DNA of 64,000 nucleotides from Amoebophrya sp. A120 (GCA_905178155.1 CAJINV010000006.1:4341938-4405937), one strand, 5' to 3'. Shown: positions 182 through 64,000, counted from the first letter of the stretch. The notes: generated from the sequence alone by a model not told the origin. Numbers and translations are program-made.

Positions 182-3100
182 CACCTGCGGGCGGGTTCAG
201 TGCGGACGGGGGAGCTGAGCAGGATCTAGATCTGTTGAAGCAGTCCTCTTTGTCCACCTCTGCATGGTACGCGTTTTATCGGGATATGGACCGGAATAAC
301 AACAACCTCGTCTCCATGATCGAATTCGAAGCGGTATTGTGAGGAAAAATCTTTCCTCCCCATATTGAAAGCGCATCCATCTTCTGGAAACTTGTGATGC
401 AGATTTGTGAACACAAGTCGCGTCTGTCTTGCAAGAGGGCAAGTGCAGGCTGTCCGGCACGTTATGCAGGCGATTTGTAATGCTGCAAGCCCTACAGGGC
501 AGCCGTCTGCCATGCTAGGCGCCTACACCAAAAGGCCCCGCCCTAGGGTTGCGATCTGACTGCGTGCAGTGCTCTACTGCAACACGGATTTGATTTGTGT
601 ACTCAAATACAGCATCACAAATTTCTTTGTCGATATGGGGAGGGGGGATCTTTCCTTCTGATAAGCGGGGTTGCTTTCTTTAAAATACCCCGACGAATCC
701 ACGGACGCGTCGAGTCGGAAGAATATCCTGTGCAAAAGTACCGTACGCGTAGTAATTGCAAGCATGGATGACAGGGTAAATCCGCGCTACAAATTGTTCC
801 ATGTGTCATGCTGAGCCAAGTTGTATATGCAATTTCTAGTATTATTACCTAGGTAGTGCGATGCTTTTGCAATGCATAAAGAGAAGGAAGAAGCTACTCC
901 AGTTGTTAGATAAGGACGGCTCCGGCGAGCTGACATTTGAGGAATTCGGGCAGGTCCTCGGGTTCAGCGAAAAGGAAATCTACAAGGCAAAGGATGACTA
1001 CCAGAAGAAAAACCTCGGGAAAGACGTATGCAATGTAAAAGCATCGTACTAGTATGAATTGCATTACAAATTAGCCCAGCATTACAAATTGAATTTGTAA
1101 TGCTGATTCACCTTGAGAAAGAAATTTGTAATGCATGCATGCAATTACTACGAATACGATGTTGCTTTTGCTCAGGATAAGACGGGGTGAATCGCAATAT
1201 CCGGTGGAGCGCGACGGAAGAATTTGATTTCCACGCGAGAATCAAAGAGTACGGCAGGAGGTCCCGGAGCACCACGCCGTCGCAGCGGCACTTATCCTGA
1301 GTAAAAGCCCCACACCCCATAGTCAAGTTGGGAAACCTGCAATACAAATCAACAAGCTTTGGCTGTTGCCCATCACAGGTTTTGGCTTGCAATGTGATCG
1401 CGTTTAGCTAGCGCAGCTGCGTCACAAATCTAGCATCTTATGCTGATACGAGCATCACAAATTTCAAAACAGCACTAGAGATGAATGCGTCCTCTCATGG
1501 GGCTCCTCCGCATGAGAAACATTTTAAGCATGCAGATTTGCATGACAAGAACTAAGTAAGTATGGGGTGTGACGTTTTTCCTCAGGATAGCACTCGAAGA
1601 AGATCTACACGGACGAATCCGTGCGGAAAAATATTACAGTGAAAAATGCCCCCACACGTCCGAAAGTTGCAATAATTTGTGATGCGAAGTTTCCAAATGA
1701 AAACTTTTTGTCATGCGTGAAAGAACTATGAGTCTTACCTTTCTGATGCAGAGTCTAGTCGTATACAGCATCGCTTGCACCATCACAAGAGCTGCTCTTG
1801 CTGGGATCTTTTGCAATGCAAATCTTTGCTATTCACGATTGAAGATCTGTGATGCTGATACATGCAAGAGAGCGAGTGTTTCCTTTGGAAAGGTTTGCAA
1901 TACAAATGCTTGAAGTTCATCTGGGGTGGGGGCATCTTTCATTGTCATAAAAAAGCACATGCGCATGATCTCTGCCAGCGACATGTCGCCGGTGCCGCTG
2001 TATTGTGAGGAAAAATCCCCCCTCCCCACAGTGCTCAAAACGGAAATCTGTATTGCTGATTTGTGACCACAGATCGTCTCTCTCTTGCAAGAAGGCAACT
2101 ACGTCAGAGGTGTCCGTCGCACTGCGCGGCGGATTTCTGATGCTGTTGGACCTTCATGGCAGCCGTCTAGCATGCGAAACAGAGACTATACGCAAACAGC
2201 CCCAGCACAACTCAGGCTTGCAACCTGCCTGCGATTCCATCCTGCAAGACAAAGCGAATTCGTGGACACCAATCCAGCAACAGAAATTTCCGTTTCAAGA
2301 TGGGGACGAGGGATTTTTCATTTTCATAGGCTCCTGCCGGGTGGTCGGGTGTCGAAATCAGCTTCTTCAAGTAGGTCGAGAACGAATTTGAGCTCCGCGG
2401 GAACGGGAACAAACAAGTCCATGACGAACCAGTCCTTGACAGACGAATCAACGCAGCAGGGCGGTGGAACGACGTTGCAAGACCACGCTTTTCCCGAAAT
2501 GGAGCAGCAAGACGGGCGGGGAACGAACTATATATGCAATGCAAAAGCATCGTGCTCGTATAAATGCATTACAAATTTCCTCTGCGTGGTGAGAAATAAA
2601 ATCTGTAATGCGGATTTACCTTGCCAAAGAAATTTGTAACGCATGATTGCAATTACTACGACTACGAGTACGAGTACGATAGTTTTGCACAGCATACTAC
2701 AATCGGTTTAGCAACGACAACATGCAACAGGGGCAGCAAAGTGCTGGACAGCATAGTCTATCAAATGTAAAAATGTCTGGGTCTGGAAGAATGCATGTTT
2801 GTCATGCTTGTCTGGCATGACTCTTGAATCTGTCATGCAAGTTACCCAAGAGCCCCATTTTTCTGTGATGCAGAAGCGCACTTTGTCATGCAGAATAGGC
2901 AACACCTGGAAGCTCAGAAACTTGTGATGCTGAGCCAGCATTTCTGGCCTCATCATGAGACGCCACCCAGCATCACAAGTTTCCAGACCCAGACATTTTT
3001 ACATTTGATATAGTCAACATATGAAGAAATCCAGCTCTGCAGGGACCACAAATTCAGCTCCTATCAAACGCAAAAATGTCTGGGTCTGGAAGGATGCGAA

Positions 3101-6100
3101 CTTGTGATGCATACTTGGATCACACAAAAATCTGTCATGCTTAGACAGCAAAGGGAGCTTGCTCCTTTTCCTGTCGCCGAAAGAAGATGCTTGTCATGCG
3201 GATTAAGCATTGCGAAACTGTCTCAAAACCTGCGATGCTAGGCCTTGCATGGCACACCTTCTGTGTCAAGCAGACACAGCATCACAAACCTCAGCAACCT
3301 TCCAGACCCGGATATTTTTGCAATGTATAGCTCCTTCGACGAGACAACAACAGCTGAGTTCCGCTGGCGGCGGAGCGAACAGTGCAACTACCGGGAATAA
3401 TGCGATGGAGCTCATTCCCTTGCAGGAAGACCAGCAGATGACAATGATCTCCGAGACAACGACAATTATCAACCGGTCCGCAACTATGGAACTGTCAGGA
3501 TCGAAATCAACAAAATCGAAATAATTTGTGATGCATAAAATAGATACCAGTTGGAGCCTCAGTTTCCAAGTGGCGCATGACAAATTTCAGGAGCTGCACC
3601 AAAATCCAGTCTGTCATGCTGTTTGGGCAAAGAAGGCTGCTCCTGTCGTGCTACTCTGGCAGCACATCGCCTTCCCCTAAACAGGCTTGCATCGGTCTCA
3701 TTTGCCTGCTCCCCAACACAGGCCTTACTTGCCCAACATTTTATGCATTACAAAACTTTTCGAATTTATCGCTTTCGATCCTGACACATCCATAGCAACC
3801 GCACCGACCAAAACTACTGCCGAAGAGCCGCCAAAGGAATTCGACTACGCCGCTTTTGTATCGCAAGAAAAAACTGTTCCACTGTGAACTTGTGATGCAT
3901 AAAATGGAAGATTGAACTATTTGTCTTGCTACTTCTGCAAGGCATCGGATTTTTAAGCGTGTTTTCCCTATGGGAAATGCGCGCACGGCATGTGTAACAA
4001 ACTTGTGATGCAGATCTTGCAAAATGAAAATTATCACAGTGAAGCAGTTTTTTCGTGGGATAGTTTAAGAAGAAGCAGCAAGCACCAAGCACTGCGCCAA
4101 CAACGCTAACCGACACGAAAAACCAGAACAATCCAGGGTTCAGTCGGAAGTCCCACATTGTTGACCACCCATATCGTACGAAAAAAGTGTTTCACTGAAA
4201 GGATTTTGCAAGTTTTGCATCACAAGTTTGTTCTGCATGACAGAGAAAATTTGCCCTGCGAGATTTCCAAGGGAAAGCACCGCTAAAGATCCATTGTCTT
4301 GCATGTGTGGCAAGACAAACACTTCTGAGATACATTTTCTGCATTACAAGTTCACAGTGAAACAGTTTTTTCTTGCGATAACCCGAAACGGTGGACCAAT
4401 CGGTACGGGCACGTGGATCCGAAAACGCCGAAGCAGTTTCGCGACTCGTTTGACGGATTCGGGTTGTTTTCTACGGAGCATTTGATCATGCAACAGGAGT
4501 GGAAGATCCCGCCCGGTACGGGGGAGGACGACTTTTCCCAATCGAAATGGCGATCGTCCGGTGCACCGCCCAATTGGGTCGACCCGAAGAAGGCGCTGCA
4601 GAAGAAGAAGGACAACATGATCATCGAAATGAAACTGTTCCGGGATTTATCAACTTCAAATATGTCTGGGTCTGGAAACTTGTAATGCTGAGCTGTGAGA
4701 AGCAAGTAGTGAATTCTCTGTAATGCACAGCCAAGCATGAGAAATCTTTGCGCTGCTTAGTGTTACGCTTTCCGCATGACAAAGTGCGTTTTGCATGACA
4801 AGCAAGAAGGTCTCTTCTTGGACACGCATCACAAACTCTTCCGTCATGCCAAGCAAGCATGACAAACCTTGCATCCATCCCGACCCAGACATATTTGCAA
4901 TGCATAGGATTTTCTGGAGTCCAAATACGGGGCGTACGGCTATGAAGGGATGGAGCGGATTATCCTGAGGCAAAACGATCCCACCCCATAGTCAAGATGG
5001 GAAATCTGCTACACAAATCCCTAAGCTTTGGCTGTCGCGCATGACAAATTTGGGCTTGCAATGTACTTTCGTGTTTAGCTTGTGCAGCAGCGTACCAGAT
5101 CCAGTTTGTCATGCTGATTCGAGCATGACAAATCTCACAGCACCACCGGGAAACGCCTCTCATCCTCATGGGTCTCCGCAAGAGAAACACTTCAAGCATG
5201 CAGATTTGCATTACAACTCTGGGGTGGGGACGTTTTCGCACAGGATACGGATCTTCAAAATGATGGACACGAACAGCTCTGTATCAAATGCAAATATGTC
5301 TGGGTCTGGAAGGATGCAACTTGTGATGCTGCCTTTGGACTCTACATAAAATCTGTATTGCGTGAACAGCACAAGAGGTGTAATTTGTGCTACGCGTATG
5401 GCGGACGCAGAAACTTTTCTTCAAGAAACTTTTTTTTTTTACCCATGACCTCGGCCTGTGCATGATAGGCCTTGCAACTTTATATAACGGGTTTACGAAG
5501 GGAGTAGCAAGCCCTGCCACGGCTCATGCCAAGCCAATCGCGTAAGCACTTGCGAAGACGCTTCAGCAGCAACAGGTGCTGCGGGCTTTTGGTGTTCCGC
5601 TAGTCTTGGTCCCGTGTCCCTTTCATTCCCGCACGCCAGCGCCCGTCTTAATCGGGCTTGATGCTACCGGGGCACGCGCCTTCTTGCGCAGCACACGCTG
5701 TGCGGAGGCCACCTTCTGTGTTTCACCGAAGGAGCTGACAAGTGCGCCGCCTGAGGTCGCCATCCCCCTTCGAACGTATTCTGGCGACCCTTAGGGAGGG
5801 TAAAATACGGCCCAAATAGCGTTCTCAAGTGCGGGAAGGCTTCTGCGCCGTTTCCGGAAGCAACGTCGCGGAGAAGGGCGCTGCCGGCCCTTGGCCAATC
5901 TGCCAGAACCCAGCGCGACGCCGGCGACCGTGCGCATAGACAAACCAACCCGCACGAACGGCGCCTCTTGCGCAGAGTTGCCTCGTAGCTCGAAGATGTC
6001 CGACCTCGTCTTGAGGAGACACGCCGAAAACACCAGAGGGGGGCCCCTCGGAGGGGGGTTGGGGGGGTGGGTTGCGCGACCCCCCCTGCGTCCATCATAC

Positions 6101-9100
6101 CATGCGGGCTAGCAAAAAAAGGGGGTCCCGAAGGGGGGGGGGTTTACTCCCCCCCTCCGGGGCCCCTCGAGCCGGCATTTTTGCGCTGCCCAAAAGGATT
6201 TCCCGTTGTCTGCGTTGCCGCCAGGCCGGGCGAAAGACCTGGGGGCTTAGGGCAGTGTGGGGAAGCCCGGCGGAAGAAAGCCCACTGCGCGCGGGGCTCT
6301 GCGAGGTTTTTCTCGTTCTAAGCTAGAGCGCCTCCACGCCGCTAAACCTCGGCGGGGCCCCGCAGAACAGCAGCAGAGAAGATTCAAAGCAACGCCCGTC
6401 CTTTCCTCTGTTTCGGGGGTAGTGAGGTGATGCGCCCAAGCCATGACAGCCCGTCGGCACCTCTCACACTGCTAACGCGTAGCTTTGGTGGCACGAGGAG
6501 CCGGCGATAGTGCCTGCTCTCACAGTAGCCATCACCCCCTGCGGCAGGACCCTCGCCGCACGCACAGACCCTGAGAGGCCGCTTTCCAATTGGTCGCCGA
6601 ATGCCTGAGCGGCTCAGACTGTTCGTCCTGGGTTCTCTTTCTAAGCCGGAGTCAAGGAATGGCTGCGCTAGCGGTTAAGCCGTCCTATCAAGAGGGGGCC
6701 GGCGGCAGGCGAGCAAAAATCGACGGTAGGGCCCGCGCTTGGTATTAGGATGCACAGCTATGGGCAAAAAAAAAAGTTTTTTGAAAAAAAGTTTCTGCGT
6801 CCGCCATAACGTGGAGAGGAGATTTCTCAAGCGTTATGAGCATCAGAAAGCCCTCGCAAAATCTCTGATGCTGGGGCATGCATCACAGACCTCATGGGTC
6901 ATGCAAAATCTGCATGACAAACAACTGCACTCGCCCAGACCCAGACATTTTTGCAATCCATAGTCCGACCGGTTGGGCGTTTCCGCGTTTACCGCGGCCT
7001 TGCAATCGACTCTGAAGTACCCCGACGATGGCTCGATTTCCTTCAACGCACAGAGAAGACGGGTGAATCTGTTTCTCATCATGGATTTGGACGGAATGGG
7101 GAGCTTGGATCGGTACAGAGTTGTACTACAGTTTTGTTTCAGTATCTTGTTGTGATCATGTAGTTGTCATTCTGCAACGCAAATCGCTTTTCGTTTGCGT
7201 TTCCCGCATGACAAATTCATCTAGCCTCGATGATTAAAAAAAAGGTACGAATTCTGCCGTGGTTTGACCCAGCAGCTGGACGCCGGAGTGAATCTGGACG
7301 AGAAATTATTGCAATGAAAAATGCCCCCACCCCGGAACTTGGGAGCATTTGTATTGCAAACCTTTCCAAAGGAAACACTCGCCCTCTTGCATGTATCAGC
7401 GTCGCAGATTTTCAATCGTGAATAGCAAAAATTTGTATTGCAAAAGATCCCAGCAAGAGCGGCGCTTGTCATGCAAGCGGCGCTTTATACGACAAGACTC
7501 TGCATCATGAGAAAGATTCATAGTGCTTTCATGCATGGCAAAAAGTTTTCATTTGGAAACTTCGCGTCACAAACTACTGCAAAATTCGGGGTGGGGGCAT
7601 TTTTCACTGTGATAGAAATTCACCCGCCGCCTCCAGCGGTGGGGTAACGAGAAATCGAAGTGGGTTTTGCTGGCGAAGGGGGCGAAAAATTTGAAAAAAC
7701 CACCGCGGAAAACGTGGCACGATTCTTTGTCCATCGTGAAGCCCGAGAACCTATTGAGAGGAAAAATCCCCCTTCCCCATATTGAAGAGGCATCTTTTCG
7801 AAAATTGATGTTGCTGATTTGAGGTCACAAATCACATTTGTTTTGCAAGAAGACCAGGGCAGAAGCTTCCGCCCCATTACGGAAGCGATTTGTCATGCTG
7901 TTGGGCCTAAAGGGGAGCCGTTTGCCATGCTGAGCAACTAGACGCATACGCCCCTACCTAGCCTGGCGATCTGGCCGCAGTGCTTCCCTGCAATACAAAT
8001 CTGATTTGTGTACGCAAATCCAGCATCACAGATCTCTTTTTCGATATGGGGAGGGGGGATTTTTCCTTTTGATAGAACCCGGTGTCCTATCTAGCAAACG
8101 TCGGACTGTCCGGGGGAAACTCCACGTCGGTGCAGGCGAACAGCGAGGAATTAGCCCGGGCGCAACGGTATCAAATGCAAATATGTCTTGGTCTGGAACA
8201 AACTTGTGATGCAAGGACGGGAATAGTGAGCACACTGTAATACGCTACACAGCATGACAAGTTTTTCCGTGGTTCAGAGTTGCGCACCGCGCATGAGAAA
8301 CTGCGTTTTTGCATGACAGACGCGAGGACCTCCTCGCGGGCACGCAATACAGAGTTCAGAGTCATGCCAGACTAACATGACAAATCTCGCAATCTCCCAG
8401 ACCCAGACATATTTGCAGTTCATAAAAGGGCGAACGCGTTTATCAACGTGAGGAAGAAGCTAGAGCCGATCTATTCCCGGCCGGGCACGATGGGAAACAG
8501 CTATGCATTGCAAATATGTCTGGGTCTGGATGGTTGCAACTTGTGATGCTGCCTTTGGATTCTACACAGAATCTGTCTTGCATGATCAGCAAAAGAGGCC
8601 CATTTTTTGCTACCCGGAGAGGGCTCTCATGCAGTATAGGCATCAGAAAGCCCTCAAAAAATTTGTGATGTTAGGGCATGCATCACAGACACCATGGGGC
8701 ACGCAAAATGTGCATGACAAGCGCTGCACTCTTCCAGACCCAGACACATTTGCATTTGATAACAGCGGGTGCGCGACCAGTTTCGGGCCCCCAAGACCGA
8801 CTACCAGTCCGGATCTGTCGCAGCTGTTTAACATCCTATATCAAAAGGAAAAATCCCCCCTCCCCATATCGAAAAGGCATCCGTTCGAAAATCTGTGATG
8901 CTGATTTGTGGCCACAAATCAGGTCTGTCTTGCACGAGAGCAACGCCAGAGCTTTCGCCGCTTTACGCAGGCGATTTGTAATGCTGCTGCACCAACAGGG
9001 CAGACGTCTGCCATGCTGAGCGCCCACCTCTAGCCAGCCCCTTCCAGGCTTTTTATCTGCCTGCACTCCTATACTGCAAGACAAAGCTGAAGCTGATTTG

Positions 9101-10209
9101 TGTACACAAATCCCGCAACACAGATTGCCACTTTGATATGGGGAGGGGGGTTTTTTTCTTTCGATATCCTGCCCAAATCGAGCAAGGATTCCTCCGGGGA
9201 CAGTAACCGCGGCGTTTTGTCCGCACTAATGAACGCTTCGAAACCAAAAATGAGTGAGAAATCTTTCCTAGCGGATGAGCACAGCCTCTATGCATTGCAA
9301 ATATACCTGGGAGGTCGGGAGGAATGCAAGTTTGTCATGCTCGGCTGGTATGACTCTTAACTCTGTGATGCATGAGCAGGAAAAAAGCCTGCCCCTCGCC
9401 TGTCAACATGCAAAAACGCAGTTCTTTGTCATGCGCAAAGCGAAACACATAGCAGCTCGACAACTTGTCATGCTTGGCCGCGTATTGCAGTGCTTACCCA
9501 TCAATCACAACTTTGCATCACAACTTTCCAGACATCCTGGGCTATTTGCAGTGCATAGCCTCATGCCGGCAACTACGGGGGATGCGGAGGATGATGATGA
9601 AGTGTCGGACATGCTTATCAAATGCAAAAATGTCTGGGTCTGGAAGATTTGTAGACTTGTCATGCATATTTTCCAGAAGCCACGATGTCTGTGATGCATG
9701 CCGTAGCATCACAGATGTGTATCGGGCTTTGTGATACCTCTACCGCATGAGAAATACCCTCTCCACGTAGGACAAACCCGACCCCTCTTGCTGGTCATGC
9801 AATACAATTTTTTTTAGAATCCACAGACAGCATCACAAGTTGTGAGCTTCCAGACCCAGACATTTTTGCATTTGATAATGCTGAAAAACCTGCAAAAGCG
9901 GTTTTTGCAACAGGAGCACGTGCGGGAAGAGCGGAAATCACGGGCCTTGTCCGAAACGGTTGACTTTGCGGAAATGATGTGCAGGATATGCAATGCAAAA
10001 GCATCGTACTAGTATAAATTGCATTACAAATTAGCCAGCATTACAAATTGAATTTGTAATGCTGATTTGCCTTGAGAAAGAGATTAGTAAATGCATGGCT
10101 GCGATTACTACGAGTGCGATACTTTTGCAGTGCATACAGGAGTGCGAACAGCAACGCGATCGCGCAGATGAGCAGCGTCGCGAACTTTGGAGTACAGATT
10201 TCGTCGTGA
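182..10209 (+). CDS. Multi-EF-hand calcium-binding protein, 5'-partial, split by 23 complete introners and one GT-AG intron (802 aa visible)
   Basis: Removing each TA..TA element plus one 5-bp DR gives a continuous ORF (184-10209 minus 7617 nt = 2409 nt) ending at TGA 10207-10209. EF-hand-like loops: DRNNNNLVSMIE, DKDGSGELTFEE, DTNSSDRLGVSA, DLDGMGSLDRYE. The two EF-hand pairs share an LKYPD linker. Confidence 0.85.
335..663. mobile_element. Introner family B (representative; ~315-330 bp; TIR TAT.....GGAAAAATCCCCCCTCCCCATA)
   Basis: DR AGCGG/AGCGG; removal joins MIEFEA to GLLSLKYPDE. Other copies: 2001-2328, 7752-8074, 8839-9166, 35664-35978, 50413-50733, 57193-57513, 61718-62039. Confidence 0.92.
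1027..1179. mobile_element. Introner family C (representative; ~145-165 bp; TIR TAT....TGCAAAAG(T/C)ATCGTACT)
   Basis: DR AGACG/AGACG. Other copies: 724-878 (opposite orientation), 2533-2696, 9987-10136, 16794-16938, 17998-18148, 18188-18346, 20857-21019, 22160-22308, 25931-26078, 46819-46968, 53599-53748. Confidence 0.92.
1293..1589. mobile_element. Introner family D (representative; ~275-300 bp; TIR TATCCTGAGTAAAAACGTCCCCACCCCA)
   Basis: DR GCACT/GCACT. Other copies: 4961-5247, 19600-19878, 21212-21493, 25601-25874, 26131-26420, 31704-31985, 39228-39506, 43663-43942, 50785-51063, 57565-57843, 63867->64000. Confidence 0.92.
1632..1949. mobile_element. Introner family E (representative; ~305-320 bp; TIR TATTACAGTGAAAAATGCCCCCACCCC)
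   Basis: DR AAAAA/AAAAA. Other copies: 7307-7614 (opposite orientation), 17664-17976, 31357-31662, 47541-47858, 54321-54638. Confidence 0.92.
2759..3010. mobile_element. Introner family A (representative copy; ~245-295 bp; TIR TATCAAATGCAAA(A/T)ATGTCTGGGTCTGGAA); most abundant family, with several internal subtypes
   Basis: DR TAGTC/TAGTC. Other copies: 3062-3329, 4648-4906, 5282-6962 (hosts the nested element), 8169-8424, 8502-8761, 9289-9557, 9616-9877, 13421-13682, 15991-16251, 16309-16582, 18871-19132, 19951-20214, 22359-22642, 23317-23574, 23747-24008, 24394-24660, 24901-25154, 25265-25533, 27171-27456, 27770-28014, 28514-28790, 29432-29687, 29799-30067, 30397-30674, 41815-42078, 42133-42394, 42642-42888, 45230-45481, 46491-46746, 47040-47333, 48029-48292, 48394-48655, 51159-51432, 51708-51969, 52482-52740, 52856-53110, 53272-53526, 60052-60306, 60390-60651, 60919-61196, 61398-61659, 62615-62883, plus copies at +6780 in the duplication. 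Confidence 0.93.
3485..3794. mobile_element. Introner family F (representative; ~305-316 bp; TIR TATGG..(G)TGTCAGGATCGAAATC)
   Basis: DR GCAAC/GCAAC. Other copies: 15303-15618, 26761-27074, 48985-49292, 52083-52389, 55765-56072, 58863-59169, 62265-62576. Confidence 0.92.
3859..4062. mobile_element. Introner family G (representative; ~200-220 bp; TIR TATCGCAAGAAAAAA(C/G)TG; several subtypes)
   Basis: DR TTTTG/GTTTA. Other copies: <1-181, 4172-4380, 16989-17199, 31029-31243, 36732-36941, 43040-43258, 43328-43532, 44963-45175, 48745-48947, 55525-55727. Confidence 0.9.
5397..6808. mobile_element. 1412-bp non-autonomous TIR element nested inside a family A introner
   Basis: ~50-bp TIR TATGGCGGACGCAGAAACTTTT...CCCAT / ATGGGC...AAAAGTTTCTGCGTCCGCCATA; DR ACGCG/ACGTG. 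The host introner sequence resumes exactly after it. GC-rich interior with no credible ORF. Confidence 0.9.
7113..7244 (+). other. Canonical GT-AG intron (132 nt) flanked by a GGTAC direct repeat
   Basis: CG|GTACAG...AAAAG|GTACGAA; removal completes the EF-hand loop DLDGMGSLDRYEF. Confidence 0.85.
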
Positions 10210-13200: not shown

Positions 13201-13392
13201 GTGGAGCTGGAGATTACTTCAATATAGCAGGAGAGCGGAGTAGAGGACATCGTCGATCAAGAAGAACCCTTGGCGCTAATAGTCGTCTGTTTTTAGCCGG
13301 AAGACGCGCTGACGGGGGCAGAAGCGACAGCGGCAAAATATTAAATCTCGGGGAAAAAAGATTGTTCCCGAAGAAGACGACCAACTCCGAAG

Positions 13393-34025: not shown

Positions 34026-34106
34026 CGAGTTGTTTAAAAACGGCAGAGGAGAAGGATCGCACTTACGAGTTGTTTCAAAGAAACGGTAGAGGAGAAGGAC
34101 CGCACT
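34026..34106. repeat. ~40-bp intergenic tandem repeat
   Basis: CGAGTTGTTT..AAAACGG(C/T)AGAGGAGAAGGA(T/C)CGCACT occurs twice. Confidence 0.8.
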
Positions 34107-45609: not shown

Positions 45610-46154
45610 GTTATACTTTCGATTCGTCTACTCTACAGTTCTCTTTTCAATATCGTTCTCATCTAGGATCAGTCCCTGGTAGTTGCTTGTTCTGGTGTGC
45701 TTTCTATATTCATCAATGGATTGTGCGCCGGCTAGAGCTGCTAGTTCTTCGTCTCTAATGAATAACGGGCAAGTAGTTGTACTAGGCCGAGGGTAGTACT
45801 ATGTATACTATAAAAATGTGCAGGCACTAAAAATAAACTTGCGGGAAGGTATAAAAATTGCAAAACAGCATTTACTTTTATCGGCATCATCGGCAAAACA
45901 GGTTACGGCGCATCTTCCGCGACCGGCGCGGGGGCCAATTCTAGCACGGGGGCTACACTCACGTCTGTTATCCACTATAGATCGAGGAAGTTTCTTGATG
46001 ATTGTACCGTCATACACGACAACGTGCGTTAAGTTGTGTACGTAGTAATGACAAACCTGCATGTTGAAATGGGTGTATGATTTGTTTTCGTAGCCTGTAC
46101 TAGCCAGGAGATTAAGCCCCCACCGAGGATCTTCATTCTGATTGAAATTTCCAT

Positions 46155-52100: not shown

Positions 52101-55100
52101 GAAATCGACAAAGTTGAAATGATTTGTAATGCATAAAAACCATGACCCGAGGCACGTGTGTTGCAGAGCAGGCAAGTGAGGCCGATTGTAATCCTGTTTG
52201 GGGTTACAGCTCGAGCTGCTAAAGTAGCATGAGAAAATCGCTCTTCTTTGCCTAAACAGCATGACAAACTGGATTTAGGGACCGCCGAAATTTGTCATGC
52301 GCCACTTAGAAACTGGGTTCCAACTGGCATCCATTTTATGCATGACAAATTATTTCAACTTTGTCGATTTCAACTCTGACACATCCATACTGGATGACGG
52401 CGAGAGTCGGGCCGCGGGGACCACGACGCGGGGCATCCTGGCCCGCTTGGCCGGGTCCGCGATCGGCTTGATTCCGGGTGTTATCAAATGCAAAAATGTC
52501 TGGGTCTGGAAGATTCTGAGACTTGTCATGCACGGTTTGCATGACCCACGATGTCTGTGATGCATGCCCTAGCATCACAATTTTTTAAAGGGATTCTTGA
52601 TGCCTAGTCCGCATGACAAATGCCCTCTCTGCGTAGCAAAAATTAGACTCCTTTTGCTGCTCATGCAACACAAATCTTTTAGACATCCAAATGCAGCTTC
52701 AGTTGCATTCTTCCAGACCCAGACATATTTGCAGTTGATAGGTGTAGGTTTCGCGGCCAGCACCCTGGGTCTCTCGACGATCAAGGAGGCGCAGAGCAAA
52801 AAGACAAGCCCGAAGCTGACAGCGGTGGAGGATCAATTTGCCCAGCCAGAAGACCTATCAAATGCAAAATTGTCTGGGTCTGGAGGTCTGGAAGATTTGC
52901 GATGCTTGTCTGGCATGACCAAAAGGTTTGCGATGCGTGTCCAAGAAGAGACCCTTTTGCCTGTCAAGCAAAAACGCAGTTTGTCATGCGAAAAACGCAA
53001 CACAAAGAAGCGCAGATATTTCTCATGCTTGGATGTGCATTACAGAGCATTCACAACTCCCAACGCAGCATGACAAGTTTCCAGACCCAGATCGATATTT
53101 GCACTGGATAAGATCACAGCCAGTTGGCACAGATTGCTGCGCACACTGCGACGCACATGCGGCAACAGCGAGAGAAGCGAGAGTTGCAGGAGCAGAAGTT
53201 GCTGCTTGCACGATCATCTTCCGAAAGCGTTCAGACTCCTGGTGGAGGTGCAGCGGCGGCGAGTACTTCTATATGGATTGCAAATACGTCTGGGTCTGGA
53301 AGAATGCAAGTTTATCATGCTTGTCTCACATGACTCTTGAATTTGTCATGCACATTACCCAAGAGCCCCATTTTTCTGTGATGCAGAAACGCAGTTTGTC
53401 ATGCAGAATAGGCAACACCTAGTAGAAGCTCAGAAAATTGTCATGCTGAGCGAGCACTTGTGGCCTCCTCATGATACGCCACCCAGCATCACAAGTTTCC
53501 AGACCCAGACATATTTGCAATGCATAGCACCAGCGGCCACGCGAGCCAAATGTCTACCGATGGCATGAGCAATGTGGCGGTCGGGTGTCGCTCGAGCATA
53601 TCCTGTGCAAAAGTATCGTACTCGTAGTAATGGCAGTCATGCATTACAAATCTCCATCCCAAGGCAAAACAGCATGACAAATTGCATTTGTCATGCTGAC
53701 CGAATTTGTAATGCGATTTGTACTAGTACGATGCTGTTGCAATGCATAGAGCATAGCGGGTGACGATTTAGATGACCAGTTTGAAATCGCTTCGCAGCAA
53801 ATTGACGCACAGCTTGCTGTATGCATTGCAAATACGCCTGGGTCTGGTTCTGGAAGGTTGCAACTTGTGATGCTGGCTTTGGATTCAGAAAAAATCTGTA
53901 TTGCGTGACCAGCCAAAGCGGTCCAGTTTGTGCTACGTGGAGAGCTACCGTTTCTCATGCGGAATAGGCATTACCATTATCAGGAAGCCATCTAATAGTG
54001 GTCTGTGATGCTAGGTGATGCATTGTAGGCGTCGCGGGTCATGCAAAAGGTGCATGACATACAAACGCTGCACCCTTCGTCCAGACCCAGATCGATATTT
54101 GCAGTTGATGATATGCAGCGGGAGGTGACCTGGATCATCCTGTCGCCGGTAGTTCGCGTAGTGGAGGTGGTGACCTGGAGAAACTGCACCAGGGACAAAT
54201 GCAGGCACCTGGTGCACCTGGAGCTACCGCAGCTGGTTGTTTTGCTTTTGCCGGTGGAGTTCCGCAACAACAGCTTCTCCCTAGCATCTGCGAAACTTTG
54301 AACGAAGATATGGCCTCGGATATTACAGTGAAAAAAGCCCCCACGCCCAAAATTGCAATAGTTTGTGATGCGAAGTTTCCAAGTGAAAGCTTTTTGTTAT
54401 GCATGAAAGGAGTACGAATCTTTCTGATCCTGATGCAGAGTCTAGGCGTATATCGCAGCGCCTGCATGACAAGCGCCGCTCTTGCTGGGATCTTTTGCAA
54501 TTACAAATTTTTATTTTTGCTATTCACGACTGGGAATCTGTAATGCTGATAGATGCAAGAGGGCGAGTGTTTCCTTTGGAAAGGTTTGCAATACAAATGC
54601 TCCCAAGTTCGGGGGTGGGGGCGTTTTTCATTGTAATATCGGAGCTGGGAGCGAAGACGGCATCTTCCCGGGGAAAGATGAGAAATAATGACCGCAGCTC
54701 TTCAAGCAAGGAAAGTTGCACGGCCGGCGACCGAGTTGTAGCTGGTGGAACCGCGGCAGCCGCTTCTTCTATGGAGGACCTGCCCCGCGTGCCCAGTAAC
54801 AATACCATTATCAAATGCAAAGATGTCTGGGTCTCGAAGAGTACAAGACTTCTCATGCGGGTTCAACATGACGCATGAGGTCTGCAATGCAGGAGCTAGC
54901 ATGACAGATTCTGTGAGATCTCTACCATGCCTATCCTGCATGAGAAACTCACTCCCAACTTGGTCAAAAGTGGTCAGCTTTTGGTAGTCATGCAACACAA
55001 ATTTTTGCATGATCCAGATTTAGCATGTCAAGCTGCATCCTTCCAGACATCCAGGGATACTTGCAGTGCATAACCATGACGGACGAACAGTTTTCCGAAC

Positions 55101-58100
55101 TGGGCGGCGCGTTCAGCCGGGCGAGTAGCGGAATTATTCGGCAATCCACGAAGGATAGTACCATTACCAGGGCTATCAACTGCAAAAATGTCTGGGTCTG
55201 GAAGAATGCAACTTGTGATGCTGCATTTGGATTCCAAAAAGATCTGTATTGCATGAGTACCAAAGGGAATGCAATTTTTGCCACGCTGAGAAGGCATTTT
55301 CCATGCGGAATAGGCATCAAGAAGCCCTCAAAAAGTCTGTTATGCTAGGGCATGCATCACAGACATCGTGGCTCATGCAAAACGTGCATGACAAGTCTCA
55401 GAGTCTTCCAGACCCAGACATATTTGCAATTCATAAGGGCCGCGGCGTTGAGTAGCGCAGGTTCCTCGCCAATGCAGGGGCCTGTATCAACTACCGCAAC
55501 AAGCGCGGGAAGATGTGGGCGATCTATCGCGAGAAAAAAGTGTTTACAGTTACACATTTGTTCGAATTTCAGCATCACAAAGAAGACTTGTAATGCGCAG
55601 ACCACAACATCTTCAAGGGAAAACCCGCACGAAATGAGGCTGGCAAGCATTTTCTGCATGACAGAGGTTGTCTGTCTTGCTGGTCTTGCGTCAGAGTGTG
55701 TAACTGTAACACTTTTTCCTTGTGATACGATCCTCTGCTGCTCTACTACAACATGCGGGAGGAGTATGGAAGCGTCAAGTTTGAAATCGACAAAGTTGAA
55801 ATGATTTGTCATGCATAAATTGCAAGGCATGAAGTGCCTATCTTGCCGGGATGGCAAGCGAGGCCGATTGTGAGCCTGTTTAGGGTTTGAAATAGAGCTA
55901 CTAAACTAGCATGACAAAAGCAGTCTTCTGTGCCCAAACAGCACGGCAAATTGGATTCCGGTGCTCGGAAGATTTGTCATGCGCCGCTTGATAAGTGGGC
56001 TTCCGACTGGTATCGGTTTTATGCGTGACAAACTATTTCAACTTTGACGATTTCGATCCTGACACATCCATAACGATGTGGGAATAGTCATAGCCTTTCT
56101 CCGCAACTTCGCGCCGCAGTTCAGGCCCACGGTTGTACTAGTTCGCTCCAGCAGCAGGTCGTACTGGGACAACATGATGATTTCACTGGAGCAGGAGCTC
56201 ACGTAGGGCACCACCAGCGTCCTGGTGCTTGTAGTACCGCTGGTCGTCTGGAGGAACAACTTGCGGCGAGCAGGCCATCTTGCTCGCACACAACAACCAC
56301 ATATGAGAGTGCACAACTCCCCCTCCCCCTCATTTGTGTTGCATGAACAGCAACACAAGCGCGGGCAAAGATGCAGCTTTTGCATGACAAATTCCTAGGG
56401 GACTGTAGTGCTGTTTTGGATTCCGGAATTTGTCATGCAAACAGTGCCACAAGGCAGCGACTGGATTTGGGATTTTGCATGACAAAGGAGGGGGAGGGGG
56501 AGTTGTGCACCGTGATACCACACCGGCACAGCACCGGGAAGACGAAGAGCAACTCCAGCTTCACTGCCGTGCTTGGGAGTGGGCGCGCAGCAATAGTGGC
56601 GGATCTACTGCTTCCCAAGTGGTGCAACAACGAGTTGCACTATCGGGTGGAAGAGAACAACCGGGTGGGGCGGGTGGGGCAGCCCAGAGCAGTGCTGCAC
56701 CTAGAGAAGTCGTAGTACCTGCTGCTCAAGTAGGTGAACAAGAGCGAAATGGAGTAGACGAGGAGGTTGTGGTCCCGGAGGGGACGGTTCTGAATCTCCA
56801 AAATCTTCTATGACAGTGCACAACTCCCCCTCCCCCTCATTTGTCATGCAAAACCCCAAATCCAAGGGCTTTCCTGTGGCACTGTTGGCATCACAGATTC
56901 CGGAAGCCCAAACAGTACTACACTAAGCGCATGAACTTGTCATGCACATGCACCAGGTGTGGCTGTGTTTGTATTGCTGTTCATGCAATACAAATGAGGG
57001 GGAGGGGGAGTTGTGCACTCTGATATCTTCAACCACGTGGCCCTAATCATGAAGCGGACGACAATGACGACGCTGCCTCTTCGGGAACGGCCTCGACCAA
57101 TCTGGACGCGATTGAGGATGGGCAGCAGGACAGATTGAGCGACGCCATGACCAGGCTGAGCTTGTCAAAACGGGGAAGCACTTTCGACTCCTTATCGAAA
57201 GGAAAAATCCCCCCTCCCCAAATCAAAATGAAATTTCTGATGCTGGATTTGTGTACACAAATCCGCGCTGTCTTGCTGGAGAGCACTGCAGGCCCATACT
57301 AAGTGTGAGTAGAGAGGTTTTGGCCTGGGCACTTAGCATGAAAAACATCCGCGCTGTAGGCCCAACAGCATGACAAACCGCCTGCACAGTGCGGCGGTTG
57401 TCTGTGGAGTTGCCTTCTTGCAAGACAGACACGATTTGCGACCACAAATCAGCATCACAAATTTGCAAAAGTTTTCTTTTCAGTATGGGGAGGGGGGATT
57501 TTTCCTATTGATACTCCTACGGCAGCAACATGTCGGGTTTGATGAGTGATGATGGGAACAGCCCTATCCTATGTAAAAACATCCCCACCCCAGAGTTGTC
57601 ATGCAGATTTGCAATGACAAGAACATTTGTGATGCGCATCCCTATGATGGGCCTTTCCAGTCGTGTTTTGGAATTTGTAATGCTGTAAACAGGATACGTA
57701 TCTCGATTTGTAATGCGGCTGTCCTTGCTAACCTGCACTACACTACGGGCTGCAACTTGTCATGCGTGGCGTCCAAAACTCCTGGATCTGTGTTGCAGAG
57801 ATCCCAACTTAACTATGGCGTGGGGACGTTTTTACTCAGGATAAACCCCGGTGGTTATCTCGGCAGGAACAAGAAGAGGAGCGAGAAACTGGCCGCCAGG
57901 AGAGGTGGCACCACGGGACATGGCGAAGGAGGAGCTGCTATCACCTGCAAAAGTGTCTGGGTCTGGAAAGAATGGGATTTGTGATGCTACCTGTCGACCA
58001 CACAAAAATCTGTATTGCAAGAGAGGCAAAGAAAAAACACTCAGATGGTTGCCACCAGGAGAGGGCATTTCTCATGCAGTTTAGGCATGAGCAAATCTTT

Positions 58101-61100
58101 GCGAAAGCTGTGATGCTAGAGAGTGCATCAGAGGCATCGGTGGAAGCCATGTACAATTTGCATGACAAACTCCCAATAAATCTTCCAGACCCAGACATAT
58201 TTGCATTTGATAGCTGCGTCGTCGTCCATGGACCAGCGGCAAGAAATTACGGTGGTCACCATGAGTGACGATCAGCTCGCCGCCGCCGGCAGGGCCGGGC
58301 TTCTGGGCAACTTAGAAGGCATCGACCAAGATCGGCCACCGTCTAAGAGCAGCAGCGGTAAAAAGCCGCTTTCCGGTGCAGGCGGGGGCGCTCGCACCAT
58401 TACGGATGATACGCTGATGGACACGTATGTGCTGGGCCACGCGAGCAGCCTCGATGGGGGGTCGCAAGACCGAGCGCATGGTGGGTATATCAAATGCAAA
58501 AATGTCTGGGTCTGGAATGTTGCCGGGTTTGTCATGCATACTTTGTATGACCCAGGATGTCTGTAATGCACGACCTACCATCACAGACTTTTAGAACCCT
58601 TCCTGATGCCTACCCCGCATGACAAATGCCCTCCCCGCGTAGCATAAACTAGACTCCTCTTGCTGGTCATGCAATACAGATTTTTTTAGAGTCCAAAGCC
58701 AGCATCACAGGCTCCAACCTTCCAGACCCAGACACTTTTGCATTTGATAGGGTCCTCGCAAGACCGGGCGGGTGCTGGGGCTAACTGTCCGCCCGATCAT
58801 CGCACCTGCTCCGAGGGAACCCGTTCGGCGCTCGGGGAAGAGGATATGCGGGCGATGCTGGATATGGATGTGTCAGAGTTGAAATCGACAAAGTTGAAAT
58901 GATTTGTAATGCATAAAAACCATGACCCGAGGCACGTGTGTTGCAGAGCAGGCAAGTGAGGCCGATTGTAATCCTGTTTGGGGTTACAGCTCGAGCTGCT
59001 AAAGTAGCATGAGAAAATCGCTCTTCTTTGCCTAAACAGCATGACAAACTGGATTTAGGGACCGCCGAAATTTGTCATGCGCCACTTAGAAACTGGGTTC
59101 CAACTGGCATCCATTTTATGCATGACAAATTATTTCAACTTTGTCGATTTCAACTCTGACACATCCATACTGGATGACGGCGAGAGTCGGGCCGCGGGGA
59201 CCACGACGCGGGGCATCCTGGCCCGCTTGGCCGGGTCCGCGATCGGCTTGATTCCGGGTGTTATCAAATGCAAAAATGTCTGGGTCTGGAAGATTCTGAG
59301 ACTTGTCATGCACGGTTTGCATGACCCACGATGTCTGTGATGCATGCCCTAGCATCACAATTTTTTAAAGGGATTCTTGATGCCTAGTCCGCATGACAAA
59401 TGCCCTCTCTGCGTAGCAAAAATTAGACTCCTTTTGCTGCTCATGCAACACAAATCTTTTAGACATCCAAATGCAGCTTCAGTTGCATTCTTCCAGACCC
59501 AGACATATTTGCAGTTGATAGGTGTAGGTTTCGCGGCCAGCACCCTGGGTCTCTCGACGATCAAGGAGGCGCAGAGCAAAAAGACAAGCCCGAAGCTGAC
59601 AGCGGTGGAGGATCAATTTGCCCAGCCAGAAGACCTATCAAATGCAAAATTGTCTGGGTCTGGAGGTCTGGAAGATTTGCGATGCTTGTCTGGCATGACC
59701 AAAAGGTTTGCGATGCGTGTCCAAGAAGAGACCCTTTTGCCTGTCAAGCAAAAACGCAGTTTGTCATGCGAAAAACGCAACACAAAGAAGCGCAGATATT
59801 TCTCATGCTTGGATGTGCATTACAGAGCATTCACAACTCCCAACGCAGCATGACAAGTTTCCAGACCCAGATCGATATTTGCACTGGATAAGATCACAGC
59901 CAGTTGGCACAGATTGCTGCGCACACTGCGACGCACATGCGGCAACAGCGAGAGAAGCGAGAGTTGCAGGAGCAGAAGTTGCTGCTTGCACGATCATCTT
60001 CCGAAAGCGTTCAGACTCCTGGTGGAGGTGCAGCGGCGGCGAGTACTTCTATATGGATTGCAAATACGTCTGGGTCTGGAAGAATGCAAGTTTATCATGC
60101 TTGTCTCACATGACTCTTGAATTTGTCATGCACATTACCCAAGAGCCCCATTTTTCTGTGATGCAGAAACGCAGTTTGTCATGCAGAATAGGCAACACCT
60201 AGTAGAAGCTCAGAAAATTGTCATGCTGAGCGAGCACTTGTGGCCTCCTCATGATACGCCACCCAGCATCACAAGTTTCCAGACCCAGACATTTTTGCAG
60301 TGCATATTCTAGCGGTGCTTCTCATTATTTCCTAGGAACGTCGCCTATTCGTCCCGAGCCCCAGCCCCTCCGGGAAGATCTTACGAGGGTACCAAATGCA
60401 AAAATGTCTGGGTCTGGAAGATTCTGAGACTTGTCATGCACGGTTTGCATGAGCCATGATGTCTGTGATGCATGCCCTAGCATCACAGGTTTTTTGAGGG
60501 ATTCTTGATGCCTATTCCGCATGACAAATGCCCTCTCCGCGTAGCAGATATTAGATTCCTTTTGCTGCTCATGCAACACAAATTTTTTAGACATCCAAAT
60601 GCAGCATCACAAGTTGCATTCTTCCAGACCGAGACATTTTTGCATTTGATAGAGGGCTCCTTCCTACCACGACCAAGATCTTCTGCTCCCGGCCAATGGT
60701 GCACCAGCCCGGACGCTCTCGGAAGCTGCTTTCCCGCGGCCTGACGATGCTGCTCTGATGAGTATGAGAGGGGACCACGTGATGGATGCTGATTCCTCAA
60801 ACGCCTTGTTAAATAACGTTAATGCGGCGGGAGGACGAGGACAAGCTCAAGGTGATACTACGTCGGGATTCTCGCAGGGGCAGGTCGAAGCCATGATGTA
60901 CCTCCACCAGGAACTCCATATGCATTGCAAATACCGATCTGGGTCTGGAAGGATGTTGCGAGGTTAGTCATGCTTGCATGGCATGACTGAAGAGTTTGTG
61001 AGGTCGTGAGTCCAAGAAGAGACCCCTTTGCTTGTCATGCAAAAAGAACGCAGGCTGTCAGGCGGAAAGAACCGCAACACTTAAGCGCGCAAATGTTTCT

Positions 61101-64000
61101 CATGCTTGGCTGTGCAACATTTTTACAGAGCATTCACTATTCCCAACTCAGCATAATTCCAAGTTTTCAGACCCAGATCGATATTTGCATTTGATACTGC
61201 AGCAGCAGCCGCGACAACATTCTCAGGGCCACGATAATATGCCGACGGGTTGCAGTACAACTTCTAGAGCTGCTGGGCCGGAGGTTCTTGTGCGGCACGA
61301 AGGTCGTTTTGAACATGATCCGAGCATGTTACAAGAATTATCTGGGGCAGCTGCAGCGTCTCGCGTTCTGCGCGATCAGCATGATTTTCGTTCATCATAT
61401 CAACTGTAAAAATGTCTGGGTCTGGAGGGTTGGAACTTGTGATGCTAACTTTACACTCTAAAAAAATCTGTATTGCATGACCAGCAAGAGAGGTCTCGTT
61501 TCTGCTAGGCGGGAAGGGCATTTGTCATGCGGAGTAGGCATCAGGAAGCCCTCCAAAAATCTGTGATGCTAGGTCGTGCATTACAGACATCCTGGGTCGA
61601 GCAAAATATGCATGACAAGTCTCAGAATCTTCCAGACCCAGACATTTTTGCATTTGATACATCAGGTGACGACGCAACAAGCCGCGCCGACGTTGGTGAG
61701 GAAGAACGCCGTCTGCTTATCAAAATGAAAAATCCCCCCTCCCCATATCAAAACGGAAATTTGTGATGCTGATTTGTGGCCACAAATCAGCTTTGTATTG
61801 CACAGAGGCACTGCGGCCAGATCCCCAGGCTAGGTAGGGGCGTATGGGTCTAGTAGTTCAGCATGGCAAACGGCCCCCATTTAGCCCCAACAGCATGGAA
61901 AATCGCTTCCATAATGGGGCGGAAGCTTCTGCCCTTGTCTTCTTGCAAGACAGATGTGATTTGTGGCCTCAAATCCGCAACGCAAATTTTTGGAAACATA
62001 CCTTTTCAATATGGGGAGGGGGGATTTTTCCTCTCAATACTGCTGGCTGCCCAACTACGCATACGCCACGTGTATGAGCTGAAGCGGTTGCCCGGACGAG
62101 GTCGGCCCATTGAGTTGCGTAATATCAGTACACGTGCAGAAGGAGGAGGACCTAGCACAGCAGCAGTTGGCCAAGAAGTTGTAGAACAAGGCGAGGGGCA
62201 GCAGCAGCAGACGACCACGCAGCCTCCGACGGACAAGCTCAGCTTATACCATGCGACGAGCGGATATGGGAGTGTCAGGACCGAAATCGACAAAATCGAA
62301 AAATTTGTAATGCGTAAAATTATGTAGGGCCCAAAAAAAGGCCTGTGTTGGAGAGGAGGCAAATGAGACCGATTGCAAGCCTGTTTAGCCCTAAACATGT
62401 ACTGCCAGAGTAGCATGAGAGGCGCAGTCTTCTTTGCCCAAACAGCATGACAGACTGGATTTTGGTGCTCCCAAAATTTGTCATGCGCCACCTAGAAACT
62501 GAGGCTCCAAGTGGTATCGATTTTATGCATCACAGATTTTTTCGATTTTGTTGATTTCGATCCTGACACCCCCATAGCGGACAAGTAGAACAGGATCTAC
62601 GACTTCAAGGGATGTTATGGATTGTAAAAATGTCTGGGTCTCCTGGAAGATTCTAAACTTGTAGTGCTGTCTCTGGATTCTAAAAAAATTTGTATTGCAT
62701 GACCAGCAAAAGGACTCCAGTTTGTGCTACGTGGAGAGGGCATTTCTCATGCGGTAGAGGCATCACAAAGTACTCTAAAAATCTGTGATGCTAGGGCATG
62801 CATCACAGATCGATCCTGGATCATTCAAAATATGCATGACAAACCCGGCAATCTTCCAGACCCAGACATTTTTCCATTTGACAGATGTTGAAGAGTGACG
62901 ATAGCAGAGGTAGTACTTCTTCTGCCCACAACGCGTCGGCAGCTAACCTTTTGAAGATGCGGAGGACTTCTAGTACTGCGTCAGCTGCTGAACAAGACCG
63001 GGAACAACTACAGCATCCTCCTTTGGAGCAGGAACAACGACACGTTCATCCTCTTCACTTTGACCCAGAAAATCGTAAAACTTTGCGACAAAAAAGTGGA
63101 GACCACACTATGGACGACGAGGACAATAAATTCGTTCCCTGGCAAACCGAATTTCTGGAGCGCATGAGAAACCAAGTTCTACTTTCCGGTGGTTCACCTC
63201 GCTCGATGCACACCGCCGCGGACATTCTTCAGCAAAGACTGCAACTGCAGCAAGCCGATGACCTGCAAGCCGATCTAGATCTTTCGCAGTTGAGCAATTT
63301 ACACCTTTCGTCCCCTCCTGCTCCTGCGGGGACGTCGAGCAGGGCTGTTGCATCTTCTCCTGCTCCTGCGGGGACCACGAGCAGGGCTGTTGCCCCGGTG
63401 GAGCAGGAGGAAGATGAAGATCCTCCTGCAGGTGTTCCTGATAGTCCCATGATCAGGCAGGAACACAAGATGCGTCGGCGACAAAGCGGTAACCTTGGAG
63501 AGATATTGCGAGGTCAGGCTGTTGCTGAGAAGACAGCAAGGGAAATAAAACACGTGCTGCAACGATCGTCGTCGTCCAGCAGGTTGGAAGCAGTTGGAGA
63601 AAATGGAACAGAAAGAATGGACGTTTTTCGAGATACCGCTGCTTTACCAGACGAGTTCGCGCTAGAGCAACATCCTAGAAGTTGTACAACAGCGGAGAGG
63701 ATGAAAATGGACGATATGATCAGCGGCGCACCAGGAGACTTGAGCGGTCTGATTATACCAGGGGGTCATCGTGGTACAACTGGGCGCGCAGCAGCCTGGA
63801 TACAACAACCAGTTCTTCCACCCGACGAATTGCAAAAAGAACTACAGGAGGGACAACAAACTCAGATATGCTGTGTAAAAACGACGTCCCCATCACCATC
63901 TTTCCAGAGTTGTCATGCAAATCTGCAAGTGCTTGAAATGTTTCTCATGCGAGCTGCCCCATGAGACGAGTTTTCTATATTGTATTTTGGAATTCGAATT
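46155..64000 (+). CDS. Hypothetical low-complexity protein, 3'-partial, split by introners and containing a 6780-bp tandem duplication
   Basis: The spliced ORF is open from ATG 46155 to 53271, and the same frame continues at 60307 to 63866 if one duplicate unit is ignored. The start is uncertain and the gene could be a continuation of the previous one. Confidence 0.65.
46706..60292 (+). repeat. Tandem duplication with a 6780-bp period (46706-53512 and 53486-60292)
   Basis: The sequence and the ORF track repeat at offset +6780. I saw no differences by eye. The copies overlap by 27 bp at the junction. Confidence 0.95.
63315..63393 (+). repeat. 42-bp in-frame exonic tandem repeat (PAPAGT(S/T)SRAVA x2)
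   Basis: CTCCTGCTCCTGCGGGGAC..CGAGCAGGGCTGTTGC occurs twice. Confidence 0.85.

Follow-up and report, generated by a model that had tools for sequence, protein, structure and literature searches.

A helically phased 10-bp motif shared by the introners of Amoebophrya sp. A120 is a predicted binding site on double-stranded DNA

Amoebophrya sp. A120 carries tens of thousands of introns without consensus borders; in the sections of the study by Farhat et al. (2021; PMC7789003) considered here, U1 was not detected and no transposase was reported. The published picture is one of about 1,950 separate families of such introners. We analyzed a stretch of 64,000 nucleotides of the A120 genome (GCA_905178155.1, CAJINV010000006.1:4341938-4405937; hereafter, the window), whose repeated elements are the published non-canonical introns of this organism. 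Like the introners in the same sections of Farhat et al. (PMC7789003), they have inverted repeats composed of TAT, seven variable nucleotides and an A-run, are flanked by direct repeats, have non-canonical borders and measure ~150 to 330 bp. In the catalogue of Gozashti et al. (2025; PMC12130899), one A120 family among the 41 of 58 A120 rows covered is filed under Ginger, with a 5-bp TSD and TA termini, and family 38 is entered as “5-bp TSD, TA/TA termini,” where TSD is the target site duplication. An internal motif common to different families, or its phasing, is not described in the portions covered of the text and supplements of these two papers (figures, such as Fig. S25 of Farhat et al., lie outside that scope), and the motif strings have no match in the 14 supplementary files of Gozashti et al. 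(PMC12130899). Amoebophrya is not mentioned in the part of the preprint by Roy et al. that was considered. The elements are known, and the shared motif and its helical grammar appear to be undescribed, with an earlier notice possible.

Phased accessory sites occur in the Fis enhancer of Hin and Gin, the IHF/HU sites of Mu and Tn10, and the TnsB arrays of Tn7. Placed on one face of the helix, they build a nucleoprotein complex, and a 5-bp duplication is likewise produced by Tn7 and Mu. Each of these is an individual bacterial system; the sites described here lie in eukaryotic elements that are spread genome-wide and double as introns. Transposases bind subterminal repeats of miniature inverted-repeat transposable elements (MITEs) cooperatively (Emigrant/Lemi1; PMC1636448), and site arrays aid synapsis of the ends (piggyBat, PMC11707139, with CACTA and hAT cited alongside), according to the passages of these papers that were considered. 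The likeness is that a non-autonomous element with terminal inverted repeats (TIRs) contains, within its ends, a number of short repeats in either orientation; the window elements do carry multiple conserved short repeats of both orientations inside their TIRs. In contrast, the subterminal repeats in those passages belong to one family and often resemble its TIR, whereas the A120 motif occurs in no fewer than 15 TIR classes whose interiors cannot be aligned, extends over the whole element and keeps its helical phase irrespective of orientation.

Two other groups of elements bear comparison. Ginger transposons have TGTNR termini and mostly 4-bp TSDs, TDD-4 and TDD-5 making 5-bp TSDs, in the part of the source considered (PMC2836005); the ends here are TAT rather than TGTNR, and the 5-bp TSD matches TDD only. 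Scanning the ORFs (open reading frames) of the window, of the long elements and of related loci yielded neither an integrase, which in Ginger is Gypsy-like, nor any coding element. The non-canonical TIR introns of Fritillaria and euglenids are transposon-derived, with TIRs, TSDs and non-GT-AG borders, and unlike the A120 elements they prefer certain nucleotides at or near the borders; the parts of the review consulted mention no internal repeated code for them (PMC11282704).

We delimited 115 full elements with TAT...ATA-type ends, of which 98 were kept after removal of the second copy of a 7-kb tandem duplication. That copy was excluded from the statistics, and family work used the 97 elements shorter than 400 bp. 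Nucleotides 1, 2 and 3 are those of TAT in 191, 191 and 193 of the 196 ends, a count that is partly circular because TAT belonged to the search pattern; the ORF and contig checks given below are independent of it. A was found at TIR nucleotides 11, 12 and 13 in 165, 179 and 178 of 196 ends, which fits the published inverted-repeat pattern. The TSD is a perfect 5-bp repeat in 70 of 98 elements, 4 bp long in one and 6 to 9 bp in none, without target preference, in a detection procedure that favored 5-bp matches at the borders. Short, TIR-bounded, TSD-flanked, multicopy and non-coding, the elements have the features of MITEs, or non-autonomous TIR DNA transposons.

Excision of each element together with 5 nt yielded open frames on the + strand of 2,944 codons (35 elements), 1,453 codons (11), 1,421 codons (25) and 890 codons (19). 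An RNA-type contig (run X3, its RNA type being guessed) holds exon pieces only. It spans 3,012 nt, the length predicted with 23 elements and one GT-AG intron removed, and lengths are as predicted in 11 of 11 intervals; removal was judged from these matching lengths rather than from junction letters, and two raw RNA runs yielded only 52 and 3 partial reads, none of them a junction read. A GT-AG, GC-AG or AT-AC register is possible in only 15 of 97 elements, the borders being mostly non-canonical. Excision at the DNA level, as in ciliates, was not supported, since contigs of run X5 cross element borders without differences, although other life stages might differ. Among the inter-element stretches shorter than 700 bp, only 1 of 88 is below 29 nt, versus 14.6 expected from an exponential distribution, with an excess at 45 to 60 nt; exons may need to exceed a minimum size, or insertions may interfere with one another.

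Scanning metagenomes for a motif-pair pattern gave 123 loci, 71 of which (312 kb; those named are contigs JACKZZ01...) match window families. These related loci contain 202 further elements, detected by their ends alone. As the loci had been chosen by the motif pattern, elements matching it were excluded from phasing tests. In viral contigs the TIR pattern had no match, and the motif-pair pattern had two, both in the same AT-rich stretch, which has no match to the elements.

An initial annotation of the window had proposed that one ~10-bp motif is reiterated across otherwise unrelated families and is scarce outside them. Enrichment, conservation and the lack of alignment between interiors confirm the proposal. 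The strict pattern has 255 matches in the window, 119 on the + strand and 136 on the - strand. With the duplicate copy excluded, the 26.7 kb of element DNA contain 213 (8.0/kb), the 20.6 kb of coding exon 2 and the 9.9 kb of other DNA none, and one of the two “exonic” matches (position 7206) lies in a 132-nt intron that is likely a decayed introner. The 98 full elements hold 212 strict motifs, compared with 1.06 +/- 1.07 in 50 dinucleotide shuffles; 93 of them contain the strict motif and 97 a looser version. In the related loci, at least one site is present in 202 of the 202 further elements, and at least two in 199. A position weight matrix (PWM) built from element interiors has the consensus GCAtNAcAaa(t), with high information at 7 to 9 positions, and the same consensus was recovered separately in each of 11 TIR classes. 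Most elements contain 4 to 6 sites, in an order and orientation specific to the family. Copies that had been named in a 157-bp element (40252, 40285 and 40317) and in the 249-bp element at 44113-44361 are present; the count of about 7 given for the element at 2759-3010 was too high, as we find 4 strict matches and 6 PWM sites.

To measure conservation, sites were defined in one copy and identity was scored among the remaining copies. Motif columns exceeded other interior columns in 10 of 10 family alignments (e.g., 0.86 versus 0.65 and 0.84 versus 0.68). Identities along the motif were 0.95, 0.96, 0.86, 0.85, 0.63, 0.86, 0.79 and 0.91, the first G and C being highest and the fifth base lowest. 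The families do not align end to end as descendants of one ancestor: with motifs and TIRs masked, comparisons between families scored 15 to 26, against 15 to 20 for shuffled sequences and 33 to 203 within families, the exception being a score of 30 for one related pair of 260-bp subfamilies.

Several observations accompany the motif. Some TIRs of the 260-bp and 150-bp families read, at nucleotides 4 to 13, as a degenerate motif following TAT that exceeds the PWM threshold. Good isolated copies are found in coding exons at 42509, 29207 and 63162, where chance or remnants of elements could account for them. An RBFOX-like UGCAUG site, considered as a candidate, was rejected, as the fifth base that it requires is the least conserved motif position. 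The ApiAP2-like site TGCATGCA stays no more than a candidate; the fifth base that it requires falls on that position too. In 37 of 52 unrelated metagenome loci (e.g., L011, L015, L055 and L072), a near-perfect palindromic repeat of ~110 bp carries the 10-mer in both arms. The arms appear to change together, and the repeat has no match to Amoebophrya elements; it is probably a coincidental MITE of another genome.

The motif copies are arranged with the period of the double helix. Pooling 225 elements of 18 families gave a best period of 10.4 bp (bootstrap 10.3 to 10.6), the coherence at 11.0 bp being 0.02; phasing was positive in 14 of the 18 families. A free scan of period and orientation offset, with one copy from each of 14 families, likewise settled on 10.4 bp, with an offset of 1.5 (equivalent to -3.75, the GC step), a fit equalled by 1 of 400 random layouts under the same search. 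With distances taken between GC steps, the phase at this period is 0.02 turn for same-strand pairs, 0.01 for convergent pairs and -0.06 for divergent pairs. Spacings peak at 31 to 33 and 82 to 85 bp for same-strand pairs and at 41 to 42 bp for convergent and divergent pairs, divergent pairs having a further peak at 9 to 10 bp. The signal persisted without the common same-strand pairs at 29 to 34 bp (0 of 2,000 nulls). With all parameters fixed, four new families gave a coherence of 0.28 (one copy each, P = 0.016) and of 0.36 over 78 pairs. The outermost sites cluster ~40 and ~50 bp from the ends, roughly three and four turns from TIR nucleotides 9 to 10 (R 0.37).

Among adjacent sites, 38 of 64 spacings fall at 15 to 18, 31 to 33 or 48 to 51 bp, versus 16.9 +/- 3.4 in random layouts, for windows picked post hoc. 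A 16.5-bp lattice without orientation (z 3.99; 4 of 300 nulls) was discarded, as the 10.4-bp model with an orientation offset fits better; out of sample, the lattice gave -0.07 in new families and 0.08 in new copies.

The helical period is 10.4 bp for B-DNA and about 11 for A-form RNA. Thus, the motif is most likely read on double-stranded DNA and from one face, an assignment that we hold with considerable confidence. Outside the motif, a 10.4-bp period does not dominate among AA/TT or WW steps, where 8 bp is stronger, and SS steps are ambiguous. That non-motif dinucleotides lack a dominant period of this length favors a specific reader over general nucleosome positioning.

The initial annotation had also suggested that the motif is a shared cis-acting code for a common trans-acting factor, and its conservation, its independence of family and its presence in all of the further elements support this suggestion. 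We predict, with moderate confidence, that the 10-mer is the double-stranded DNA binding site of one putative protein that would help to assemble the transposition complex of all families. Such a protein would bind from one face of B-DNA and read the GCAT and ACAA halves with the variable fifth base between them. Several bound copies would align and wrap or bridge the 110- to 330-bp element so that its ends can synapse. Elements with intact, phased arrays would be copied more often, and the motif would in this way be retained in unrelated families. This reader could be a transposase common to the families, as for subterminal repeats, or an accessory factor of the host, the latter being hinted at by TIR interiors that are specific to each family.

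The pattern of mutations leans toward a role in transposition rather than in splicing. A comparison of 259 copies from 10 families shows that the motif core acquires substitutions private to one copy at 0.56 times the rate of the remaining well-conserved columns of the interior. This ratio was 0.50 [0.40-0.61] in the 209 copies with a perfect TSD and 0.84 [0.56-1.28] in the 50 copies with an imperfect one (within-family permutation, P = 0.012), and TIRs followed the same trend (0.57 versus 0.97). It was 0.46 for copies far from their sisters and 0.65 for close sisters. Stronger protection of the core in TSD-perfect, sister-distant copies fits selection on copying lineages better than selection after insertion. 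Copies with a GT-AG or GC-AG register were not relaxed (0.36, n = 17, versus 0.50, n = 129). These data suggest that the motif is maintained for the most part in lineages that are being copied, the test being weak and its intervals wide, and we judge it somewhat more probable that the motif chiefly serves transposition than that it does not. The tandem duplication was uninformative as a test of post-insertion selection, having 2 differences in 6,821 bp.

Several findings weigh against this transposition model. TIR nucleotides 14 to 30 vary by family, which is unusual for a single transposase. Pfam searches of 20 ORFs from the window, 7 from long elements and 66 of the 76 long ones from related loci detected no transposase domain, no cognate autonomous element was found in the window or in the 312 kb of related loci, and the sections considered of Farhat et al. 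report no transposase in A120 (PMC7789003). The coherence is moderate (0.31), off-lattice spacings of 18, 23, 37 to 39 and 48 to 50 bp being common; of the four new families, two alone show clear phasing, and phasing is zero or below in 4 of 18 families, all with 1 to 4 copies. Private substitutions outside the motif are not raised in TSD-imperfect copies (0.0331 versus 0.0337), and this class is an uncertain proxy for age because non-motif rates do not rise there. The interval for close sisters, 0.39 to 1.01, leaves room for post-insertion selection. Lastly, a motif-free element (5397..6808) has evidently transposed and sits within another intron, which fits an intron-marking role better.

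That role, the strongest alternative, is a DNA-level mark: a host protein on the phased array would flag the element for co-transcriptional removal, in place of U1 and fixed splice sites. It would leave the same double-stranded DNA signature as a transposition factor, and it is in keeping with a motif found in all 202 further elements and in 97 of 98 window elements, with a canonical-type register in only 15 of 97, and with the failure to detect U1 in the sections considered of the A120 study (PMC7789003). The motif-free inserts (5397-6808 and those in L013, L027 and L049) are all nested in motif-bearing elements, and the decayed intron at 7113-7244 retains two sites. Nevertheless, protection of the core weakens where the TSD is imperfect or a close sister exists, and a GT-AG or GC-AG register brings no relaxation. 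Removal also goes ahead in an element whose array is broken by a 1.4-kb insertion, and a copy outside ORFs (36732) carries a full array. Altogether we consider an intron mark rather unlikely, keeping in mind that it and a role in transposition are not mutually exclusive.

The period might instead be a property of the DNA itself, which would place a nucleosome or some other packaging protein of no sequence specificity, a dedicated reader being absent. GC steps that recur every 10.4 bp are indeed the classical signal for rotational positioning. The AA/TT and WW steps outside the sites do not share it as nucleosome positioning would have them do, information is high at 7 to 9 motif positions, and under the fitted offset the A-tracts of opposite-strand sites would be about half a turn out of phase. 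One family is also only 112 to 116 bp long. We regard sequence-encoded wrapping as improbable.

At the RNA level, the motif had been viewed as a “remove me” tag, which could be bound by a single-stranded RNA-binding factor during splicing. Its universality in elements and near absence from exons agree with a tag, as does the presence of at least one copy on either strand in most elements. The elements, however, occur in both orientations within + strand genes. The 280-bp family, whose consensus sites are on one strand, is inserted six times forward and four times in reverse, and frames are restored both ways; nor is there any reason for single-stranded RNA to have the period of B-DNA, 10.4 rather than 11. 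We thus disfavor an RNA tag as quite improbable.

Might the motif be a relic of common ancestry, the families having arisen by duplication, inversion and deletion of one module? A same-strand pair 31 to 33 bp apart recurs in most families, and the similarity of its spacers from one family to another slightly exceeds that of shuffled spacers (0.303 versus 0.249 +/- 0.01); a few masked family pairs score 23 to 26 versus 18 to 20 shuffled, and two subfamilies are related. Against this, each of the 10 alignments has its motif columns more conserved than the other interior columns, following a profile specific to position, site order and orientation vary by family, and phasing holds without the pairs at 29 to 34 bp. 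Remote ancestry may explain the origin of the motif, not its upkeep; as the sole cause it is very improbable and largely refuted.

The suggestion that complementary modules fold each intron into a long RNA hairpin is the least credible. Interiors do fold better on average than their shuffles, with a mean z of -2.8 for 45 elements and values of -4.5 to -5.6 for three families, and in the minimum free energy structure a mean of 45% of the bases in motifs are paired to a second motif copy. Yet inverted copies of any repeat reduce folding energy, and covariation is absent: opposite-strand partners match at 577 of 791 variable cells versus 576 +/- 4 permuted (1,921 of 2,821 versus 1,922 for all opposite pairs), the fifth base matches in 48 of 113 partner cells versus 45.3 expected, and some consensus pairs are fixed mismatches; the 280-bp family, with its six consensus sites on one strand, allows no motif-motif hairpin (mean interior folding z of -0.4 in the 4 copies folded, motif-motif pairing 12%). 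A terminal stem remains plausible, as the TIRs are 83% paired and untouched by the covariation result.

The families differ in length, TIR and array. The largest subfamily, 260a (22 copies), is represented by a 262-bp introner at 42133..42394 with sites at element positions 39<, 70<, 124<, 163<, 181> and 213>, and subfamily 260b by the 252-bp introner at 2759..3010, which has a perfect 30-nt TIR, a 5-bp TSD and sites at 2798, 2829, 2862, 2882 and 2921 on the - strand and at 2970 on the + strand. The 279-bp member of the 280-bp family at 19600..19878 (+) has its sites on one strand, at 19647, 19678, 19727, 19760, 19808 and 19839. Best phased of the multicopy families is that of 323 bp (7 copies; 7752..8074), with a coherence of 0.70 to 0.81 at 10.4 bp. 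The 308-bp family (5 copies; 7307..7614) has a TIR with a purine/C-run, and the 307-bp family (6 copies; 52083..52389) has a different TIR, without AAA at nucleotides 11 to 13, and the same internal motif. The copy of the 210-bp family (9 copies) at 36732..36941 lies outside long ORFs and still has six sites. Smaller families are those of 150 bp (11 copies; 9987..10136; consensus sites 34>, 52>, 67< and 98<), 217 bp (5 copies; 50029..50245) and 157 bp (40218..40374; sites 35>, 68< and 100<; family I of the initial annotation). A 279-bp singleton family (15653..15931; 4 sites) is unphased, with a coherence of -0.10, and the 249-bp family (44113..44361; 4 sites; formerly J) has a phasing near zero. 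Four families that are absent from the window also carry the motif, with lengths of ~113 bp (L013:5385-5500), ~206 bp (L053:1172-1377), ~161 bp (L013:3801-3961) and ~258 bp (L081:1297-1554).

All four elements longer than 400 bp prove to be short ones that are rearranged or contain nested inserts. A 260-type introner at 5282..6962 is split by a nested TAT...ATA element of 1,412 bp (5397..6808), and the 1,681-bp composite is wholly absent from the RNA-type contig. The nested element has a 43-bp TIR, a five-base TSD matching at 4 of 5 positions and a GC-rich, quasi-palindromic center with G/C runs. It has no motif array and is the only motif-free element of the TAT/5-bp-TSD type seen; no second copy was found in the window or in 125 loci, and none of the 5 ORFs scanned had a Pfam match. 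The other motif-free inserts, in L013, L027 and L049, are likewise nested inside motif-bearing elements. That in L013, at about 1263-1785, represents a second TAT...ATA class of ~520 bp, inserted in a 260-type introner with an 8-bp direct repeat apparent by eye; L027 and L049 hold other inserts, one of which ends in an ATC microsatellite. In the 132-nt GT-AG intron at 7113..7244 (+), 5-bp direct repeats supply both splice sites. It has no TIR and has motifs at 7174 and 7206; this likely decayed introner has possibly been converted into a canonical intron.

Host gene 1 (187..10206, +) is open over ~800 codons once its 23 elements and the 132-nt intron are removed. Near its start, in an exon without a Pfam match, is one EF-hand-like loop pattern. 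Host gene region 2 (13345..31027, +) is open over 2,944 codons and 35 elements. In its 3′ part, 1,543 of 1,545 aligned residues match an annotated A120 protein (P0001) across 18 elements, and the exon at 28797-29429 is 100% identical to an Amoebophrya sp. A120 protein, the sole match among 6,322 candidates. P0001 (1,696 amino acids) begins ~1,400 codons into the 2,944-codon frame and extends ~150 residues past the aligned part; in the annotation the gene may be divided or extended in another way. Host gene 3 (38566..45606, +) is open over 1,453 codons and 11 elements. Host gene region 4 (46146..63865, +) contains the 7-kb tandem duplication (46498-53526 and 53279-60306), whose core is 99.97% identical (2 differences in 6,821 bp) and which is either very recent or an assembly artifact.

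The motif offers a handle on the spread of A120 introns and possibly on their recognition. The helical phasing and the identity of the elements as introners go beyond the initial annotation; they move the focus from RNA hairpins to a DNA-bound complex. One internal site in all families examined would reduce the ~1,950 families to one system with one likely reader. The 10-mer, with its geometry of 31 to 33 and 41 to 42 bp, is a concrete bait for isolating that reader, and it provides a simple signature for annotating these introns. It is conceivable, if doubtful, that one protein on the phased array both mobilizes every introner family and marks it for removal from nascent RNA. If so, any sequence that gained TAT ends and the phased code would become a self-spreading intron, with no need of splice sites or U1.

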